DNA of 64,000 nucleotides from Candidatus Hydrogenedentes bacterium UBA6118 (lineage in GTDB: Bacteria > Hydrogenedentota > Hydrogenedentia > Hydrogenedentales > SLHB01): contig DIWA01000077.1 in NCBI GenBank assembly GCA_002422525.1, forward strand, positions 62,096 to 126,095, written 5' to 3'. A program made the position numbers and the translations under genes. This document shows positions 2,761 through 9,513 of this stretch, one piece after another (the stretch's first letter is position 1; each line of letters opens with the position of its first letter). The notes under the pieces are model-generated. The model ran no database searches. It was not told where the DNA came from and saw only the letters and a program-made list of their open reading frames with translations.

Positions 2761-3981
2761 CTACTGGTCGGCGTGTTTGGCGTTGAAGGCCGCGACGCGG
2801 GCGATCAGCTCGGGGCGGCTGTCGGAGGTCATGGTGTGCTCCGGCTGCCACGTGAAATGCCAGACCCACAGCGCGATGAGCGAGACTTCCTCGTCTTCGA
2901 GGCGGTCGATGGTCTCGATGAGGGAGTCGGCCCGCGGGTCGCGTTCGTGGCTGTCCGCGTCCTGTCCGAACTCGCCGATGAACACGGGCACGCGCGCCGC
3001 GTGGGTGGCGCGCACGAGCGAGATCAGGGTGTCGACGGTATGACCGCCGAGGGGTTCGGGGTCCTCGAATCTGTGGTACCAGTGGTAGCTGGCTACATCG
3101 AGGGGCTCGGGTTGGGAGAGCAGGTTGTTGGCGATCCACTCGCGCAGGGTGTCGTTGCGGTACTTGAAGTCGGGGAAGGTCTCGCGGCGGCTGGTGCACT
3201 CGGGGCGCACGCAGGCGTCGCCGCTGGTGACGAGATGGTTCGGGTCGATGTCCTTGATGAACGCGGTCTGGTCGCGGTAGATGCGCAGGAGCATGTCGAA
3301 GGTGAGCGAGTCTTCGCGCGTGTACTCGGCGCGCGGCTCGACGCCGTCGGAGAAGCAGCCGGGCGGCAGGGCCTGCTGACCCGCGCGGTCGACGTCGGCC
3401 CCGAGCATGGCCTCGTTCCCCAGCTCCCACATGAGCACGGTCGGGTCGTCCTTGTAGCGGGAGACGAAGTCGCGGATGTAGTTGTAGCAGGCTTGGTAGG
3501 TCTTGGTGTCCGGGTCGAGGATGGCCTGCTTCGGCTCCTGGTAGTAGTCGGCGAAGAAGTTCGGCATGGCGTTGAGGCTCGGGATGAGCTTCACGCCGTG
3601 TTCGCGACACAGGGCGAAGATCTCGTCCATCCGCGCCCAGTAGCGCTCCGGATCGGGGATGAACAGGAGGTCCATGTCGCGCGGGTAGCCGGGATTGGCG
3701 AAGAACCGGATGAAGGCGACGTTGGATTCGCCCGCATCGCGGATCGCCTCGACCATCGTCGCGCGGGCGGCCTCGTTGGAGCCGTACATCTGATCGATGT
3801 GCAGCCACGTGCCCATGTAGGCTTGATGCAGGTGCGGCACGTTCACGCCGATGGCGCGATACTCCGCGCCGTTGAGGAGCAGCCGCGGACCGTCCGCCGT
3901 GACGAACCCCTCGGCGGACGCGGCCAGCGCGCTCATGGCGGCCATGCACGCCAAGCCAATGCCTAACCCATACTTCGTCAT
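2761..3981 (-). CDS. secreted glycoside hydrolase family 5 (mannanase/cellulase-like)
   Basis: signal peptide MTKYGLGIGLACMAAMSALAASA; acid/base motif WELGNE and nucleophile motif IGEFG typical of GH5. Confidence 0.7.
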   Translation of the reverse strand: MTKYGLGIGLACMAAMSALAASAEGFVTADGPRLLLNGAEYRAIGVNVPHLHQAYMGTWLHIDQMYGSNEAARATMVEAIRDAGESNVAFIRFFANPGYPRDMDLLFIPDPERYWARMDEIFALCREHGVKLIPSLNAMPNFFADYYQEPKQAILDPDTKTYQACYNYIRDFVSRYKDDPTVLMWELGNEAMLGADVDRAGQQALPPGCFSDGVEPRAEYTREDSLTFDMLLRIYRDQTAFIKDIDPNHLVTSGDACVRPECTSRRETFPDFKYRNDTLREWIANNLLSQPEPLDVASYHWYHRFEDPEPLGGHTVDTLISLVRATHAARVPVFIGEFGQDADSHERDPRADSLIETIDRLEDEEVSLIALWVWHFTWQPEHTMTSDSRPELIARVAAFNAKHADQ

Positions 3982-4040
3982 TACAGATACGCCTCCTTGT
4001 GCGTGGTTGCGGGTGTGGACACGGTCGGTCGCGTCCCAGC

Positions 4041-4355
4041 CTATTCGTAGAACAGTGTAGCATCCTCCGTCACTGCCAGCCAGACCTCGTCCTGGTCGAT
4101 GTCGAAGTAGGCGTGAACCAGCCGATTCCTCATTCCCACGATTTGATGCCAGGGAACAGAAGCGTCACATGCGCGAGCCTCCGGCGATAGGTGCGCGGCT
4201 GCTTCACCCACGACGGCGAGGCAGCTGACCAGCGCGCGCGATAGCATGGCATCGCTATCCAGTTCGGCCCGCGTACGTCCCGAGGCGAAGTCCATGGCTT
4301 CCCGCGCGGCGTCAATCATGTGACGCAGGCGAATGCAGTCATCCCTCGATAGCAT
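4041..4355 (-). CDS. hepT: HepT-like toxin (DUF86, nucleotidyltransferase substrate-binding family), copy 1
   Basis: 104 aa with RNRLVHAY (Rx4HxY) motif; overlaps upstream MNT gene by 17 nt. Confidence 0.75.
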
Positions 4356-4647
4356 ATTGGGGAGCCGCTGCTTTCACGACTTCCTCCCGAAAGTACCGGC
4401 TCAGGTCGCCCGGCGTGCGTAGATCCACCTTCCGGCCCAGCTTTTCTGACAACTCGAGCTCCAGCCCGGCCATCGTCAGCAGACTGGGGGTCTTTCCCGG
4501 CTCGAACTCAACGAGGAAATCCACGTCGCTGTCCGGCCCGAAATCGTCGCGCAGAATCGAGCCGAAAAGCGACAGGCGGCGGACGTGATTGCGCCGGCAG
4601 AAGTCCGCCAGCCACTCTTTGGGCATCTCGATGTCATGGTACGGCAT
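4339..4647 (-). CDS. mntA: MNT-type minimal nucleotidyltransferase antitoxin (MntA-like), copy 1
   Basis: start MPYHDIEMP at 4647 after GGAGA RBS; [22 protein letters not shown] = GSx10DxD nucleotidyltransferase motif; the 172-aa ORF-track start is an upstream Arg-rich extension. Confidence 0.75.
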
Positions 4648-4990
4648 GGCTGATCTCCGTGGATATTCTACTTCACCTCGATCTCGGCGGTCCACAGCCC
4701 TTCGCCGCCCATGTCGTCCCGCACCTTGCAGGCAATGCGCTTCGTGCCGCTGGCGGGAAACTCGTACTGCGCCACGAGCGCCACTTCCTTCTTGCTCCCG
4801 CGCACGAACGAATACCCCGGCGTGCTGCTGAAATGCTTCCCGTAGTCGAAGTCCCACTGCACGTTGATGATTTTCGCCCCGGCGTTCATCACCACCGTCT
4901 CGCTCACGTCAAATACATAAATCCTTGAGCCGATGCGCTTGTAGCCTACCTCGACCTTTGGCGGCTGCACGAAGGTCAGGAAGTTCTCGT
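4486..4990. repeat. near-identical block copy A (PKD-like 3' half + promoter + MNT 5' half)
   Basis: matches 5821-6215 with only scattered substitutions, whereas flanking HepT and MNT 3' halves are only about 50 percent identical at protein level. Confidence 0.8.
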
Positions 4991-5040
4991 AGTCCGCGTG
5001 GTGCGTCGAGAGCGCCGTCACATGCTCGCGGAAGCGCCGA
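4668..5040 (-). CDS. small PKD-like beta-sandwich protein associated with MNT/HepT cassette, copy 1 (start uncertain)
   Basis: C-terminal 75 aa [66 protein letters not shown] resembles the PKD WDFGDG motif; paralogue at 5999-6229 differs by 2 synonymous and 2 nonsynonymous changes, consistent with minus-strand coding; first ATG at 4889, and protein-like sequence continues upstream to about 5040, so an alternative start is likely. Confidence 0.5.
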
Positions 5041-5294
5041 CGAATCCCGCGGGATCGCTGCTGTTCGGCGTCTACGTGTTCGCGGTGCATGGATCCGCCG
5101 CGAGGCTGGCGCTGGTCCCCGTGCTGCATCGGTTCGACGCGCCGGGACGATCGGAGCGATGGCTGCGGTATCCGGCGGCGGTCGCGCTGATGGTCGGGTG
5201 CGCGTTCGTCGGCGCATGGCTGGCCGCCGTCGCGATGCTTCCGTTCGGCGGCTTGCCGCCGGAGCAGTCGATAGTCGCGCATCCGTTCTGGTAG
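4998..5294 (+). CDS. possible small membrane-protein gene or gene fragment between the two cassettes
   Basis: 98 aa with hydrophobic stretches GSLLFGVYVFAVHG and AVALMVGCAFVGAWLAAVAMLPFGG, not Arg/Pro-rich like antisense artefacts; no recognisable family. Confidence 0.25.
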   Translation: MVRRERRHMLAEAPTNPAGSLLFGVYVFAVHGSAARLALVPVLHRFDAPGRSERWLRYPAAVALMVGCAFVGAWLAAVAMLPFGGLPPEQSIVAHPFW

Positions 5295-5329
5295 GCGGCC
5301 TCGTGTTTGGCGAATTGATTGAACATCGG

Positions 5330-5686
5330 TCAGGCTTCGCCTTCTGGGTCGTTCGCGAGCAATTCCTCGATGCGCGCCAGGAACGGAGGCAGGTCTTCCG
5401 TCAGTGTCTTCCATAACAGGTCGTAGTCAATTTCGTAGTAGGCGTGCACCAGGCGGTTGCGCATGCCGATGATCGCGGCCCACGGCAAGTCTGAATGTTG
5501 CGCCCGGAACTCCGGGCTGAGACATCCGGCAGCCTCGCCCACGATTTCCAGGCACTTGACCAGACCGAGCGTTCTGACTGAGTCCGCTCGCAGCGCTGCT
5601 ACGTCTCGACCGGCGATCGTTGCAACGGCCATCCCCCCCGCTTCGCGCATGTCCATCAACAATGCCCGCCGGCTACGTCTCGACAT
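5330..5686 (-). CDS. hepT: HepT-like toxin (DUF86), copy 2
   Basis: 118 aa; [16 protein letters not shown] motif; about half identical to copy 1. Confidence 0.75.
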
Positions 5687-5978
5687 ACTGGGCCTGCGCT
5701 TCTCGCAGCACCTCGTCGCGGAAATAGCGGCTCAACTCGGCTGCCGTACGCAAGTCAGCCTTGCGCCCGATCATCTCCGAAAGCTCGATCTCCATGCTTG
5801 CGATTCCGAACAGGCCCGGGGTCTTTCCCGGCTCGAACTCAACGAGGAAATCCACGTCGCTGTCCGGGCCGAAATCGTCGCGCAGGATCGAGCCGAAAAG
5901 CGAGAGGCGGCGGATGTGATTGCGCCGGCAGAACTCGGCCAGCCACTCTTTGGGCATCTCGATGTCATGGTACGGCAT
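5673..5978 (-). CDS. mntA: MNT-type nucleotidyltransferase antitoxin (MntA-like), copy 2
   Basis: start MPYHDIEMP at 5978; N-terminal 60 aa nearly identical to copy 1, C-terminal 40 aa diverged. Confidence 0.75.
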
Positions 5979-6215
5979 GGCTGATCTCCGTGGGTATTCT
6001 ACTTCACCTCGATCTCGGCGGTCCACAGCCCTTCGCCGCCCATGTCGTCCTGCACCTTGCAGGCAATGCGCTTCGTGCCGCTGGCGGGGAATTCGTACTG
6101 CGCCACGAGCGCCACTTCCTTCTTGCTCCCGCGCACGAACGAATACCCCGGCGTGCTGCTGAAACGCTTCCCGTAGTCGAAGTCCCACTGCACGTTGATG
6201 GTTTTCGCCCCGGCG
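5821..6215. repeat. near-identical block copy B
   Basis: see copy A at 4486-4990; similarity ends inside the PKD-like ORF, and copy B has a new ATG ([10 protein letters not shown]) at the breakpoint. Confidence 0.8.
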
Positions 6216-6229
6216 TCGGGATATCCCAT
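5999..6229 (-). CDS. small PKD-like protein, copy 2 (N-terminally shortened)
   Basis: 76 aa [26 protein letters not shown]...AEIEVK; same C-terminus as copy 1. Confidence 0.5.
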
Positions 6230-6499
6230 TCGTTGTTGGAACTGCCGATGGCCTTCACGCCGCGCGCACTTCAGCGTAGTCAGTAGCGAACCGTTTGTCA
6301 ACGGCTCTTTCCCGTGCTTCCGTAGCTTGCGTCGTACGCTCTCGCTTGCCCGCCCGGAGGACAGAGCAACGAGGGGACGCGACCCGAGCGGCGTGAGAAG
6401 CGCTTTCGATCGGTCGGCGGGATGGGGTATGATTCCGGCCTTGCAGCCGGGCGTCCGGTGCGGGGCCGTGAACTTGACCAGCAGGGAGCGACCGTGAGT

Positions 6500-7690
6500 A
6501 TGTTTGAGCAACTCGATGTGGCTCCGCCCGATGCGATTCTCGGGCTGAGCGAAGCCTTCCAGAAGGACCCGACCCCGGGGAAGATCAATCTGAGCGTGGG
6601 CGTGTACAAGGACGCAGACGGGAAGACGCCGGTGCTGTCGGTGGTCAAGGAGGCGGAGCGGCGTCTGCTGGCTGAGGAGGCGACGAAGTCGTACCTGGGG
6701 ATCGACGGGTCGGCGGCGTACGGCGCGTCGGTGCAGGAGTTGGTGTTCGGCGCCGGCCATGAGGCGGTGACGTCGCGGCGGTGCGCGGTCGTGCAGACGC
6801 CGGGCGGGACGGGCGCGCTGCGGGTGGCGGCGGACTTTCTGAAGGCGAAGCTGGGCGGCCCGACGGTGTGGATGAGCGATCCGACGTGGGCGAATCACGG
6901 GAGCGTGTTCGCGGCGGCGGGGCTGACGTGCCAGACCTACCCGTATTACGATCACGCGAGCCATTCGCTTGATTTCGAGGGCATGACGGAGGCGTTGCGC
7001 GAGGTTCCCGCGGGGGATGTCGTGCTGTTGCATGGCTGTTGTCACAATCCCACGGGGATGGACCCGGATCTCAGCCAGTGGAAGGCGCTGGCGGCGTTGT
7101 CGGCGGAGCGGGGCTGGATCCCGCTGGTGGATTTCGCCTATCAGGGGTTCGCGGAGGGGCTCGAGGCGGACGCGCTGGGTGCGCGCGAGTTCGTCGCGAC
7201 GGGCCGGGAGATGTTCATCTGCTCGTCGTTCTCGAAGAACTTCGGGTTGTATAATGAGCGCGTGGGCGCGCTGTTGATCGTGGGGGCGTCGGAGGACGGC
7301 GCGCAGAAGGCGCTGGGGCATGTGAAGCGGGTGATCCGGGCGAACTATTCGAACCCGCCGGCGCACGGCGCGCTGATCGTGCGCACGACGTTGGCCGACG
7401 CGGAGCTGCGCGTGCAGTGGGAGGCGGAGGTGACGGGGATGCGGGATCGCATCAACGAGATGCGCCGCCTCTTCGTGGAGACGCTCAAGGCGAAGGGCGT
7501 GACGCGGGACTTCTCGTTCATCTCGCGTCAACGGGGGATGTTCTCGTTCTCCGGGCTGACGCCGGAGCAGGTGAAGCGGTTGCGTGATGAATACGCCATC
7601 TATATCGTTGGAAGCGGGCGCATTAATGTGGCCGGCATGACGCGAGGTAATATGGATCGGTTGTGCGAGGCCGTCGCGAGCGTGTTGTAG
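6500..7690 (+). CDS. aspC: aspartate/aromatic-amino-acid aminotransferase (class I, AspC/TyrB-like)
   Basis: start MFEQLD at 6500; PLP-lysine motif SFSKNFGLYNERVGAL; overall AspC architecture. Confidence 0.85.
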   Translation: MFEQLDVAPPDAILGLSEAFQKDPTPGKINLSVGVYKDADGKTPVLSVVKEAERRLLAEEATKSYLGIDGSAAYGASVQELVFGAGHEAVTSRRCAVVQTPGGTGALRVAADFLKAKLGGPTVWMSDPTWANHGSVFAAAGLTCQTYPYYDHASHSLDFEGMTEALREVPAGDVVLLHGCCHNPTGMDPDLSQWKALAALSAERGWIPLVDFAYQGFAEGLEADALGAREFVATGREMFICSSFSKNFGLYNERVGALLIVGASEDGAQKALGHVKRVIRANYSNPPAHGALIVRTTLADAELRVQWEAEVTGMRDRINEMRRLFVETLKAKGVTRDFSFISRQRGMFSFSGLTPEQVKRLRDEYAIYIVGSGRINVAGMTRGNMDRLCEAVASVL

Positions 7691-7728
7691 GGCGGTTTGC
7701 GTCGACCTCGCCCGAGGAGGAATGCAGT

Positions 7729-8220
7729 ATGGATGCGATTGAGGCGCTGAAGACGCGCAGGTCAGTAAGGAGCTACAAGAGCGACCCGGTGTCGCGGGAG
7801 GTGATCGCGGATATCGTGGACTGCGGCCGGCTGGCCGCGAGCGCGATCAACATCCAGCCGTGGGAGTTCGTTGTGGTGACGGACCAGACGATGCGCAGCC
7901 GCATCGCGGATGCGACGGACCACGGCAAGCACATCGCGGAAGCGGCGGTGTGCGTCGCGGTTTTCTGCAAGGAAGGCGCGTACTACCTGGAGGATGGGTG
8001 CGCCGCGACGCAGAACATTCTGGTGGCCGCGCGGGCGCATGGACTGGGTTCGTGCTGGGTGGCCGGCGACCGGAAGGCGTACACGGGGGAGATCGCGAAG
8101 TTGCTCGGGGCGCCGGCGGACTACAAGCTGGTCAGCCTGATCGCGATCGGTCACCCGGTGCAGGCGGACGAACCGCCGAAGCGGCCGCTTGAAGAGGTGT
8201 TGCACTGGGAGAAGTTCTGA
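7729..8220 (+). CDS. nitroreductase family protein
   Basis: GAGGAGG RBS then ATG at 7729; RRSVRSYKSDPV and SAINIQPWEFVVV motifs. Confidence 0.75.
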   Translation: MDAIEALKTRRSVRSYKSDPVSREVIADIVDCGRLAASAINIQPWEFVVVTDQTMRSRIADATDHGKHIAEAAVCVAVFCKEGAYYLEDGCAATQNILVAARAHGLGSCWVAGDRKAYTGEIAKLLGAPADYKLVSLIAIGHPVQADEPPKRPLEEVLHWEKF

Positions 8221-8259
8221 GGGGAACCGCCTCGGACGCACTGGTTGGGTTGGATAGAC

Positions 8260-8297
8260 GGGCCCGCACTCCGGATGACGGCGTGCGGGCCTTTTCG
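8260..8297. terminator. bidirectional intrinsic terminator between convergent genes
   Basis: 9-bp perfect stem GGCCCGCAC / GTGCGGGCC with 13-nt loop, followed by TTTTCG; between nitroreductase stop (8220) and PsiE-like stop (8324). Confidence 0.55.
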
Positions 8298-8323
8298 ATC
8301 GCGCGCGGGGCGGCCGGCGGGGG

Positions 8324-8836
8324 CTACTCGATGGAGCCGGCGCGGTGCTCGTCTTCGGCGGCGCCGCTGTCGCGGACCACGACGAGCCAGTAGCCGATGC
8401 CCATGGCGAGGACGACGGCGGCGATGGCGAAGATCATCTCGTGGGTGGTCTCTTTGAGGTCGAGGATGATGACCTTTCGCGCGATGGCCATCATGGCGGT
8501 GGCCATGACGATCTTGACGTGGATGACGTTTTCCTCGAGGTAGATCGCGATGTTGACGAAGATCTCGATGGCGATGAGGACCGCCATGAACGCGCCGAAG
8601 GTGTTGAGGATGTCCTCGATCTTGAGGAGCATGAAGGGGGGCGTGCTCAGGTGCTCGTAGAGGACATAGACGACGTCGAGGACGCCCCACATGATGACGC
8701 CCGTCATGAGGACCGCGAGGATGCGGACGGCGATGCGGTTGATCCGTTTCAGGAAGCGGATGGTCGGGTCTTCCTGGTGGGCGATTGTGTAGCCGACGTC
8801 GCGGGTCGTCTCTTTGAGTTCGCTGTCCCGGCCCAT
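8324..8836 (-). CDS. PsiE-family (phosphate-starvation-inducible E-like) membrane protein
   Basis: 170 aa, 4 TM; FMAVLIAIEIFVNIAIYL and MATAMMAIARKVIILD segments parallel conserved PsiE helices. Confidence 0.5.
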   Translation of the reverse strand: MGRDSELKETTRDVGYTIAHQEDPTIRFLKRINRIAVRILAVLMTGVIMWGVLDVVYVLYEHLSTPPFMLLKIEDILNTFGAFMAVLIAIEIFVNIAIYLEENVIHVKIVMATAMMAIARKVIILDLKETTHEMIFAIAAVVLAMGIGYWLVVVRDSGAAEDEHRAGSIE

Positions 8837-8904
8837 ATACCTCCTTCTGCTTGCGCCTCGGCGCGGTGAGAGTATATCACCGGCGCGGGGATGGTTGGAA
8901 GCGG

Positions 8905-9513
8905 CTAGAGGAAGACGGCCTTGGCGGCGTCCATGCGCTCGAAGAGGGAGTGGCCGAAGGCGCGGAGCATGGTGTCGAGGCGGACGAGGGGAAGGCCGAG
9001 CACGTTCTGGTAGCAGCCTTCGTACCGTGCGATGAGGAGGCTGCCGGGTCCGTCGACGGTGTAGGCGCCGGCGCGGTCGGTGGGGCGGACGGCGAGGACG
9101 AAGGCGTTGATCTCGTCGTCGCTGAGCTCGCGGAACGTGACGCGCGTGGTCTCGCTGTCTTCGGCATGGCGGCCTGACGCGGCGTCGATGAGGGCGATGC
9201 CGGTGACGACCTCGTGGGTGCGGCCGGAAAGTCGGCGCAGCATGGCGCGGGCCTCATCGAGGTCGGCCGGTTTGCTCAGGGGGACGCGGTCGAGGAAGAC
9301 GAGGGTGTCGGCGGCGATGACGAGCTTGTCGCCGTGGAGTCGGGAGGCGACGGCGGCGGCTTTGGCGCGGGCATTGGCGCAGACGACGGCGGCGGGGTCG
9401 TCGCCGTGGTCGACCTCGGGGGCGTCGCTGACGATGACGTCGAAGTCGAGTCCGAGGGCGGCGAGCAGGGCGCGGCGTCGGGGCGACTGGGAGGCGAGAA
9501 CGATCCGGCTCAC
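8905..9513 (-). CDS. maf: Maf-like nucleoside triphosphate pyrophosphatase / septum formation protein
   Basis: IVLASQSPRRRALL N-terminal Maf signature. Confidence 0.85.
   Translation of the reverse strand: MSRIVLASQSPRRRALLAALGLDFDVIVSDAPEVDHGDDPAAVVCANARAKAAAVASRLHGDKLVIAADTLVFLDRVPLSKPADLDEARAMLRRLSGRTHEVVTGIALIDAASGRHAEDSETTRVTFRELSDDEINAFVLAVRPTDRAGAYTVDGPGSLLIARYEGCYQNVLGLPLVRLDTMLRAFGHSLFERMDAAKAVFL

Follow-up and report, generated by a model that had tools for sequence, protein, structure and literature searches.

Type VII toxin-antitoxin pairs consist of a HEPN RNase toxin, HepT, and a minimal nucleotidyltransferase (MNT) that neutralises it via AMPylation, as described for the HepT-MntA pairs of Shewanella and Aphanizomenon. 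In the 64,000-nucleotide stretch of DNA analysed here (the window), two such pairs lie in tandem on the minus strand, and each is preceded by a coding segment with a PKD fold. The original prediction for this locus read the segment as a conserved third component physically coupled to HepT/MNT. Is it a partner of the toxin-antitoxin pairs, or does it belong to something else? The four toxin-antitoxin genes are as follows.

4041 to 4355, minus strand: HepT1, HEPN-family RNase toxin, 104 aa (Pfam PF01934, E=4.8e-20)
4339 to 4647, minus strand: MNT1, minimal nucleotidyltransferase antitoxin, 102 aa (Pfam PF01909, NTP_transf_2, E=2.5e-14), with a GS...DSDVD motif
5330 to 5686, minus strand: HepT2, HEPN-family RNase toxin, 118 aa (Pfam PF01934, E=1.8e-20)
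5673 to 5978, minus strand: MNT2, antitoxin, 101 aa (Pfam PF01909, E=1.8e-13)

The presence of two pairs, as predicted, is confirmed by HepT-like and NTP_transf_2 matches above the Pfam cut-off in both. The antitoxin gene stands directly upstream of the toxin gene, with an overlap of 17 nt between MNT1 and HepT1 and 14 nt between MNT2 and HepT2. Both MNT copies carry the GSx(n)DxD nucleotidyltransferase motif, and MNT1 also matches PADLOC PDC-S09 (E=3e-26). The translations of HepT1 and HepT2 both contain RNRLVHAY, that is Rx4H with a Tyr at H+2 (HAY). This Tyr is the candidate for AMPylation in both toxins; AMPylation and RNA cleavage are putative here. An exact-protein look-up returned no identical record of HepT2 elsewhere. 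An Rfam search and a tRNA scan gave no match in or near the region.

The two small overlapping genes with MNT first, the GS...DxD motif and the Rx4H motif with a Tyr two past the His are shared with HepT-MntA of Shewanella oneidensis (SO_3166/SO_3165; PMC4621449). However, the pairs fall below the NCBIfam equivalog cut-offs (NF047751 and NF047752; 31.9-32.3 and 36.9-39 bits against a cut-off of 60, with HepT1 at 31.9 bits for HepT_toxin), so the type VII mechanism is assigned by family and not by equivalence. They also differ from HepT-MntA in being two diverged tandem pairs with one recombined MNT N-terminal half in common, and in sitting in the wreck of a restriction operon. On the evidence of their sequences, both are self-contained, ordinary toxin-antitoxin pairs of the type VII kind.

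The segment in front of each pair has a different origin. By homology, the "small PKD-like protein" is the cut-off C-terminal domain of Mod, the N6/N4 DNA methyltransferase (600-700 aa) of a type III-like restriction-modification operon, and the start of the res gene of such an operon is also preserved.

4668 to 5046, minus strand: mod tail copy 1, the last 119 codons and the stop, comprising a linker and a complete PKD-fold domain (tblastn, blastn, AlphaFold/Foldseek)
5999 to 6217, minus strand: mod tail copy 2, the last 72 codons and the stop, with the first two PKD beta strands missing (tblastn, predicted model)
5274 to 5326, minus strand: relic of the res gene start (MFNQFAKHE...), 83% identical by blastn over 53 nt to the res starts of L004, L083 and L084
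5047 to 5273, no strand assigned: GC-rich filler of 227 nt, orphan DNA that separates the res relic from mod tail copy 1

In tblastn comparisons copy 1 corresponds to Mod residues 256-374 and copy 2 to residues 304-374, at 73-89% identity overall and 73-86% for copy 1, and the tails are 86-91% identical to functional homologues. The segment (WDFDYGK...) ends in stop codons at 4668-4670 in copy 1 and 5999-6001 in copy 2. The distance from there to the MNT ATG is 20 nt in both copies, where 18 nt had been counted. The small ORF had been put at about 75 aa; in copy 1 the homology spans 119 codons (5027-4671) within a 248-codon open frame that overlaps HepT2. The DNA homology of copy 1 begins at about 5046-5037 by blastn, and that of copy 2 ends at 6216/6217. 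The N-terminal and core regions of Mod have no match anywhere in the 64 kb, the methyltransferase catalytic domain (PF01555) is absent, and the 248-aa frame has no Pfam hit. With no methyltransferase core, the small ORF is a gene fragment and not a Mod. The original prediction had named one outcome that would speak against it, namely that the ORF is only a remnant; truncated tails with no Mod core in 64 kb are what was found.

The PKD-like fold itself was borne out by structure prediction. The AlphaFold model of the segment has a pLDDT of 80 and its best Foldseek matches are PKD domains (6aem_A, E=2.8e-5, TM 0.82), with further matches to 4l9d and 4tn9; Pfam PKD_4 reaches only E=0.036, under the cut-off. 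According to the AlphaFold strand positions, copy 2 is without beta strands 1 and 2 of the predicted fold. The proposed truncation of copy 2 is real, at 72 codons and inside the fold. The "new ATG" that it was said to gain, at 6229, lies inside a 510-codon spurious open frame antisense to an aminotransferase gene, and the sequence upstream of this ATG shows no ribosome-binding motif of the GGAG type.

Neither mod tail contains stop codons or frameshifts. This openness says little because the GC content is about 63% and the 510-codon spurious ORF overlaps the same place. Translation of the tails may be possible, as in-frame ATG codons are present in copy 1 and its PKD domain is complete. Synonymous changes between the copies had been taken as support for coding. 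The changes within the tail are three non-synonymous, one of them at a nearly invariant Gln, and two synonymous, and are too few to demonstrate selection on it.

The family to which the segment belongs was followed in other genomes. Its homologues comprise 134 proteins at 48-91% identity, encoded in the order N6_N4_Mtase, homologue, ResIII, TnsA_N or in the order homologue, MNT, HepT, ResIII, TnsA_N. A genome scan for the restriction family gave 124 tblastn-confirmed matches, and the mod-res-nuclease type III-like operon was found in 80 genome loci from many bacterial phyla. In 53 of 82 loci the PKD segment forms the end of one uninterrupted frame, at least 560 codons long. The closest relatives (P0001) appeared to encode the PKD part as a separate 150-aa gene; this was rejected as the reading frame extends upstream, and the gene call is split in the same mod region that carries a 32-nt palindromic insertion.

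The order mod, res of these operons is that of type III systems (EcoP15I-like), with a Mod resembling N6_N4_Mtase/MTase_III and a Res resembling ResIII/REase_III. The Mod of the relatives matches PF01555 and the MTase_III or MTase_II models. They differ from type III systems in the C-terminal PKD-fold domain of Mod and in the nuclease of Res, which is a separate overlapping 116-aa TnsA-like ORF; Res and this protein match two parts of one REase_III model. They differ further in the frequent presence of cargo at the mod-res junction. The res start is approximately 20 nt or less from the mod stop in about three quarters of the surveyed loci. Eight of the 82 loci (approximately 10%; L002, L005, L007, L012, L030, L039, L047 and L078) have MNT-HepT between the two genes. 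Four of the eight show a full-length mod frame end and three are cut by a contig start. The last, L078, is itself a relic, independent of the window and arranged in the same way. Other cargo at the junction includes an M78 peptidase with DUF4411, PIN, HEPN with MNT, PDDEXK_3, GIY-YIG, HD, DUF5131, Mrr-STAND and Schlafen. About three quarters of the family loci are without any MNT-HepT. Literature searches gave no dedicated description of toxin-antitoxin genes carried specifically at the junction of type III mod and res.

Thus the segment is the C-terminus of mod in 53 of 82 loci, and the pair accompanies it in only eight; it is not a conserved component of HepT/MNT. A survey of the kind that the original prediction proposed, for small PKD ORFs co-occurring with HepT/MNT, gave no free-standing co-occurrence outside the restriction operon. 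No mod or res match was present near six independently found MNT-HepT relatives (L085-L090), of which only four have enough upstream DNA to hold the tail. Only distant relatives, at 35-47% identity, came up when metagenomes were scanned with HepT1, and these were used as a negative control for the mod tail. A metagenome scan for the cassette-specific spacer (TAGAATAYCCACGGAGATCAGCCATG) was without hits.

The res relic ties the window to these operons from the other side. It begins 3 nt past the HepT2 stop, which in a junction alignment is the res start position of the intact operons that carry MNT-HepT, and tblastn covers Res residues 1-14. An intact res (ResIII helicase and nuclease) was not found beside the pairs, only its first 53 nt (5326-5274). 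Of a type III system the window thus retains just 119 and 72 mod codons and this res start. The 227-nt filler has no homology to any fetched restriction-modification locus in blastn and tblastx comparisons, which also included the window; its sole match is a 16-nt palindrome that recurs in the repeat region near 2248 and 2477. Between 4001 and 6500 the GC content is 60-65%, against 62-72%, mostly 66-72%, in the flanks.

With an offset of 1331 nt, the two cassettes stay in register and align without gaps across MNT and HepT. Within this alignment lies a stretch of much higher identity.

4487 to 4885, minus strand: recombination or conversion tract, copy 1 side, covering mod tail, spacer and MNT codons 1-54
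5818 to 6216, minus strand: recombination or conversion tract, copy 2 side, pairing with 4487-4885

Identity is 97.0% in the tract (12 mismatches in 399 nt) versus 54% in the abutting DNA. A maximum chi-square analysis placed the breakpoint at 4487 (chi2=204), and none of 2000 permutations gave a value as high. By part, cassettes 1 and 2 are 96% identical in the mod tail, 96% in the spacer, 96% in the 5' part of MNT, 59% in its 3' part and 52% in HepT; the 5' parts of MNT1 and MNT2 encode only 2 amino-acid differences. The possibility that the 97% tract only mirrors how conserved the mod tail and the 5' half of MNT are in general was rejected, because other cassettes of the same lineage reach only 67-75% there. 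These comparisons support a recent recombination or conversion tract within a much older divergence. The bounds first given for it, 4486-4990 and 5821-6215, are unequal in length and overshoot by 105 nt. The unique flanks of the tract copies are the aminotransferase promoter region, the res relic with the filler, and a glycoside hydrolase gene.

The tract had been placed inside old paralogues, and this second part of the claim does not hold in its simple form. At the amino-acid level HepT2 shares 45% identity with HepT1 but 56-60% with the HepTs of L012 and L078, which come from other phyla, and the MNT 3' halves show the same grouping. Since HepT2 groups with cassettes of other phyla and not with HepT1, the pairs are not simple paralogues that arose in situ. 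An old tandem duplication of one relic cassette, divergence to about 50% and a recent intrachromosomal conversion of the 399-nt tract would account for the perfect register at 1331 nt, gapless over MNT and HepT, and for the sharp breakpoint, which is what a conversion tract would give. We nevertheless consider this origin improbable. The HepTs to which HepT2 is closer than to HepT1 stand in restriction operons of other phyla, the MNT 3' halves show the same pattern, and copy 2 has its own res start while copy 1 has a longer mod tail, which fits two operon-derived units. In addition, a mod tail that had long been non-functional should have decayed, yet the tails keep their high identity to functional homologues.

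An assembly artefact, in which the tandem would be a chimera of two strain or locus variants joined across the shared 399-nt repeat, was also weighed. The DNA may come from a metagenome, near-identical repeats of 400 nt are typical points of misassembly, and HepT2 has no identical protein on record elsewhere. However, the tract copies differ at 12 positions, both lie in unique flanks that read through continuously, and a chimera would not make the junction of res relic, filler and mod tail; we regard an artefact as highly improbable. Finally, a genuine role for the small ORF as a conserved third component (a sensor, adaptor or regulator), co-transcribed with the pair and functionally coupled to it, is scarcely credible, because its same-strand position 20 nt upstream of MNT in both copies, the complete fold in copy 1 and its homologues beside MNT-HepT in eight other loci are set against a segment that is part of mod in seven of those eight and relic in the eighth, the many family loci without MNT-HepT, the lack of a mod match in L085-L090 (four of six with enough upstream DNA), the cut inside the fold of copy 2, the res relic directly after HepT2 and the mostly non-synonymous tail changes, one at a nearly invariant Gln.

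We conclude that the type VII pairs very probably outlived a decayed restriction operon, and that the small ORFs are mod-tail pseudogene remnants and not partners of the pairs. Both pairs would once have been cargo at the mod-res junction of a widely transferred type III-like operon whose products were a Res helicase, a small TnsA-like nuclease and a Mod with a PKD domain at its C-terminus. Deletion would later have removed the restriction genes and left two pairs, the 119- and 72-codon mod tails and the 53-nt res start. The pairs may have been kept by addiction, as loss of the antitoxin would be lethal, and loss of the restriction genes would be tolerated. Cassettes 1 and 2 probably accumulated their differences in separate operons before they were joined. 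The 97% tract would then be the product of homologous recombination or gene conversion that spanned the conserved mod tail and the catalytic N-terminal half of MNT, and the toxin-facing C-terminal half of MNT would have stayed with its cognate HepT in each copy. We infer this order of events from the arrangement of the remnants.

Retention of the mod tail may be explained at least in part by the promoter predicted for each cassette, which is built from it.

4665 to 4694, minus strand: predicted sigma-70-like promoter, copy 1, TGGACC, 18 nt, TAGAAT (consensus scan)
5996 to 6025, minus strand: predicted sigma-70-like promoter, copy 2, TGGACC, 18 nt, TAGAAT (consensus scan)

In the same place in both copies, the -35 element of the predicted promoter falls within the last mod codons (L-W-T) and the -10 element lies across the mod stop codon. 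A GGAG stands 8 nt before the MNT1 ATG. Among about ten junctions from very different phyla, TAnnAT is found at the mod stop codon in the occupied junctions and is absent from the empty ones. A further reading, possible but doubtful, is that the mod-res junction is a dedicated cargo slot, in which toxin-antitoxin and defence cassettes are exchanged by recombination within the highly conserved mod-tail and res-head flanks, a hybrid MNT-HepT promoter is formed from the last mod codons, and addiction keeps the cassette together with the mod tail after restriction is lost. The idea of a hybrid promoter is based on the consensus scan and on those junction sequences. If true, the cargo-slot reading would explain the recurrent relics of tail, toxin-antitoxin pair and res head, as in the window and L078, and the chimeric MNT genes, whose breakpoint lies between the catalytic and toxin-specific halves.

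HEPN RNase genes linked to restriction-modification operons have been described, with PrrC-EcoprrI as the paradigm and at least 16 HEPN clades involved (Anantharaman et al. 2013, PMC3710099). The intact relatives L002, L005, L007, L012, L030, L039 and L047 resemble this paradigm in having a HEPN RNase gene inside the operon, an arrangement interpreted in both cases as layered defence. The PrrC protein, an ABC-ATPase-HEPN fusion, is checked by restriction proteins, whereas the HEPN toxin here is paired with an MNT antitoxin of its own. In the paradigm the host system is of type I and here it is type III-like, and in the window its restriction genes are gone. The locus also resembles tripartite toxin-antitoxin systems (e.g. 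toxin-antitoxin-chaperone) in its three co-oriented small ORFs with short gaps. However, the third ORF here is a gene fragment that is not conserved with the pair and does not co-occur with it outside the restriction operon.

The main value of the analysis is this correction, which should prevent the annotation of a false tripartite HepT/MNT system. The natural MNT chimeras are usable for mapping the half of MNT that sets toxin specificity. The locus clearly illustrates how addictive toxin-antitoxin cargo can survive the restriction operon that carried it. Within one widely transferred type III-like family, the mod-res junction appears as a slot for varied toxin-antitoxin and defence cargo, and the known associations of HEPN with restriction-modification (PMC3710099) are extended to a type III context.

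The small PKD-like ORF that precedes each MNT-HepT pair (antitoxin and HEPN RNase toxin, respectively) is a remnant of a Mod (methyltransferase) gene, an identity settled by the genomic contexts of its homologues. A database search with the longer copy 1 frame recovered 134 homologues (48-91% identity, longest 241 aa), none with a Pfam annotation apart from two weak PKD hits. They occur in two arrangements, either between an N6_N4_Mtase and a ResIII gene, with a TnsA_N-like protein following, or directly upstream of MNT, HepT, ResIII and the TnsA_N-like protein. The PKD-like part closes an unbroken frame of 560 or more codons in 53 of 82 loci, and in 13 further loci the frame is cut by contig ends. 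The original prediction had made this ORF a third component of HepT/MNT, which is refuted. The PKD-like fold it had proposed was correct: the AlphaFold model of the 119-aa tail is a PKD beta-sandwich (pLDDT 80) with best structural matches to 6aem_A, 4l9d and 4tn9 (Foldseek; E from 3e-5, TM up to 0.83). No mod or res (helicase gene) match was found near six MNT-HepT relatives identified from HepT1 (L085-L090), four of which have enough upstream DNA for a tail.

All features between 4041 and 6229 are annotated on the minus strand, and are listed here with their neighbours in transcription order.

Features of the locus
about 6422-6500 (start), plus strand: aspartate aminotransferase gene, upstream and divergent
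6217-6002 (stop 5999-6001), minus strand: mod tail copy 2
5978-5673, minus strand: MNT2
5686-5330, minus strand: HepT2
5326-5274, minus strand: res-start relic
5273-5047: orphan segment of 227 nt
about 5046-4671 (stop 4668-4670), minus strand: mod tail copy 1
4647-4339, minus strand: MNT1
4355-4041, minus strand: HepT1
3981-2761: GH5-like glycoside hydrolase gene, downstream of HepT1

The GC content of 4001-6500 (60-65%) is somewhat lower than that of the flanks (62-72%, mostly 66-72%). A 510-codon open frame (5999-7531, minus strand) lies antisense to the aspartate aminotransferase gene and runs on into mod tail copy 2. Because this spurious ORF spans the same place, the lack of stop codons in the tails is uninformative at the GC content of the window. 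Downstream of the GH5-like gene, the intergenic region 2143-2710 contains two kinds of repeats. These are a 27-nt palindrome-containing unit, TGACCGGCGAGGGCGCCGGTCCCACAC (approximately two copies at 2312-2365 and six at 2541-2708), and approximately six repeats of GGGGTGGAC at 2162-2219. The array resembles REP-type elements and swells spurious ORFs with GPAPSPV-type repeats. A 16-nt palindrome in the orphan segment (cggcggcttgccgccg / cggcggcaagccgccg, 5246-5261) recurs in the repeat region at 2248-2263 and 2477-2492, possibly as a short hairpin element spread across the genome, possibly by chance.

Scanning a single genome for each species identified 80 loci of the mod-res operon in many bacterial phyla, including Planctomycetota, Nitrospirota, Chloroflexota, Acidobacteriota, Verrucomicrobiota, Bacteroidota and Cyanobacteria, as well as in Alpha- and Gammaproteobacteria and Saccharibacteria. 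As annotated by tblastn, the canonical operon has a mod of 600-700 codons, a res of 672 aa starting at most about 20 nt from the mod stop, and an overlapping 116-aa ORF. In L007, as in most loci, the ResIII helicase ORF (672 aa, 7043-9061) overlaps the TnsA_N-like nuclease ORF (116 aa, 9051-9401) by 11 nt. Mod matches PF01555 and the PADLOC MTase_III or MTase_II models, and Res matches ResIII. One PADLOC REase_III model is matched at separate positions (120-356 and 738-830) by Res and the 116-aa protein. The operon is therefore type III-like, with a Res nuclease that is split.

Little of this operon is left in the window. Searches of the 64 kb with full Mod, Res and nuclease proteins (tblastn) found nothing beyond the two tails and the res start. 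Copy 1 retains Mod residues 256-374 and copy 2 residues 304-374; the latter corresponds to only residues 48-119 of the modelled tail, without the first two strands of the sandwich. Res residues 1-14 begin 3 nt past the HepT2 stop, exactly where res begins in operons with cargo, and the relic DNA is 83% identical over 53 nt to the res starts of other loci. The tails are 86-91% identical to functional Mod proteins, thus their truncation was probably recent relative to the divergence of the cassettes (mod tail, MNT and HepT). An independent relic with the same layout is L078, from a Planctomycetota genome bin, where a mod tail of about 88 aa, MNT, HepT and scattered res fragments lie at 5974-7300, preceded by a neighbouring prolyl oligopeptidase gene.

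Partly decayed operons occur in further loci. In L026 and L080 an intact res follows mod tails cut down to 161 and 81 aa, respectively, and L038 has an internal mod deletion with HEPN-MNT cargo. In L072 mod and res fragments flank a possible HicAB pair. The closest relatives of the window tail (L083 and L084, 91% amino-acid identity) come from two different samples and have a common 32-nt insertion inside mod (about 1400-1470 and 5761-5830, respectively) carrying the palindrome GTAGCATGGGCGAGACGCCCATGCTAC. In both, gene callers split mod into two ORFs, one of 513 or 535 aa and one of 150 aa.

MNT-HepT is an optional cargo of the mod-res operon, located between mod and res in 8 of 82 loci. The cassettes form two lineages, one with L002, L005, L007, L030 and L047, the other with L012, L039, L078 and both window copies. 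In approximately one quarter of family loci, unrelated cargo fills exactly the gap from the mod stop to the res start (near position 6360 in most loci), and this junction acts as a hot spot for cargo. The other cargoes are an M78 peptidase with DUF4411 (L003), PDDEXK_3 (L015), HEPN (PF05168) and MNT in reverse order (L038), an HD protein and partner (L062, L075), GIY-YIG (L074), Mrr-STAND (L076), a PHP-ABC ATPase with Schlafen/AlbA_2 (L077), a PIN pair (L079), DUF5131 and a partner (L081), and the possible HicAB pair of L072, recognized only by eye.

The two tandem MNT-HepT pairs themselves were confirmed. Both contain HepT-like (E ~1e-20) and NTP_transf_2 (E ~1e-14) Pfam domains, and the two units align without gaps at a 1331-nt offset. 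The pairs fall in the NCBIfam HepT and MntA families, yet under equivalog cut-offs, and both MNTs match the PADLOC candidate system PDC-S09. The catalytic motifs are complete in both (MNT GS...DSDVD, HepT RNRLVHAY), and antitoxin and toxin genes overlap by 17 nt (MNT1/HepT1) and 14 nt (MNT2/HepT2). Judged by sequence, neither pair stands out within the HepT/MNT (type VII) family, whose mechanism is described in the literature (PMC4621449). The spacer from tail stop to MNT ATG is 20 nt, not 18 nt as first given.

The near-identical tract reported between the copies is a real and significant mosaic, with an upper bound at 4885/6216 rather than 4990. The maximum chi-square test placed one breakpoint at 4487 (chi2=204, reached in 0 of 2000 permutations). 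The tract (4487-4885 against 5818-6216) has 12 mismatches in 399 nt (97.0% identity); outside it, the remaining MNT 3' half and HepT are 54% identical. Past 4885/6216 the copies are unrelated because the mod homology of copy 2 stops there. General conservation was ruled out as the source of the tract, as the MNT 5' part of L012, L039 and L078, whose cassettes belong to the lineage of the window copies, is only 67-75% identical. The tail within the tract has three non-synonymous differences, one of which swaps a nearly invariant Gln, and two synonymous; the MNT 5' part has two conservative and five synonymous differences. These small counts are compatible with a tail under relaxed constraint and an MNT under purifying selection. 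The breakpoint is at MNT codon 54, directly past the catalytic DxD strand (EFEPGKTP), so each chimeric MNT retains its own C-terminal half beside its own HepT, which would preserve cognate neutralisation.

A recent tract within an old divergence is upheld. The cassettes are probably not recent in-situ paralogues. HepT2 shares 56-60% identity with the HepTs of L012 and L078, with which it groups in a neighbour-joining tree, but only 45% with HepT1; the MNT 3' halves have the same pattern. The cassettes thus appear to have split before the HepT2 lineage parted from restriction-operon cassettes of other phyla. In the simplest reading, two operon-derived units would have been joined. By one route, an incoming or circularised fragment would have recombined through a single crossover in the common mod tail and MNT 5' segment; alternatively, this segment may have been homogenised later by gene conversion. 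After the joining of the units, the restriction genes would have been lost by deletions.

Only two sigma-70-like promoters are predicted in 3900-6500, at the equivalent place in both copies (TGGACC, 18 nt, TAGAAT). The predicted -35 coincides with the conserved mod codons Leu-Trp-Thr, and the predicted -10 spans the mod stop codon. A TAnnAT hexamer covers the mod stop in 7 of 9 occupied junctions but in none of the six empty junctions compared. If the predicted promoter drives the antitoxin, any deletion that removes part of the final ~35 nt of mod would be lethal, and some tail would be retained for this reason. This would account for keeping some tail, not for 72-119 codons.

HEPN RNases inside restriction-modification operons are well documented, with at least 16 clades and PrrC-EcoprrI as the paradigm (PMC3710099). 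Our literature search found no paper on cargo at the mod-res junction of type III systems in particular, and cargo at this junction may be a small addition to existing knowledge.
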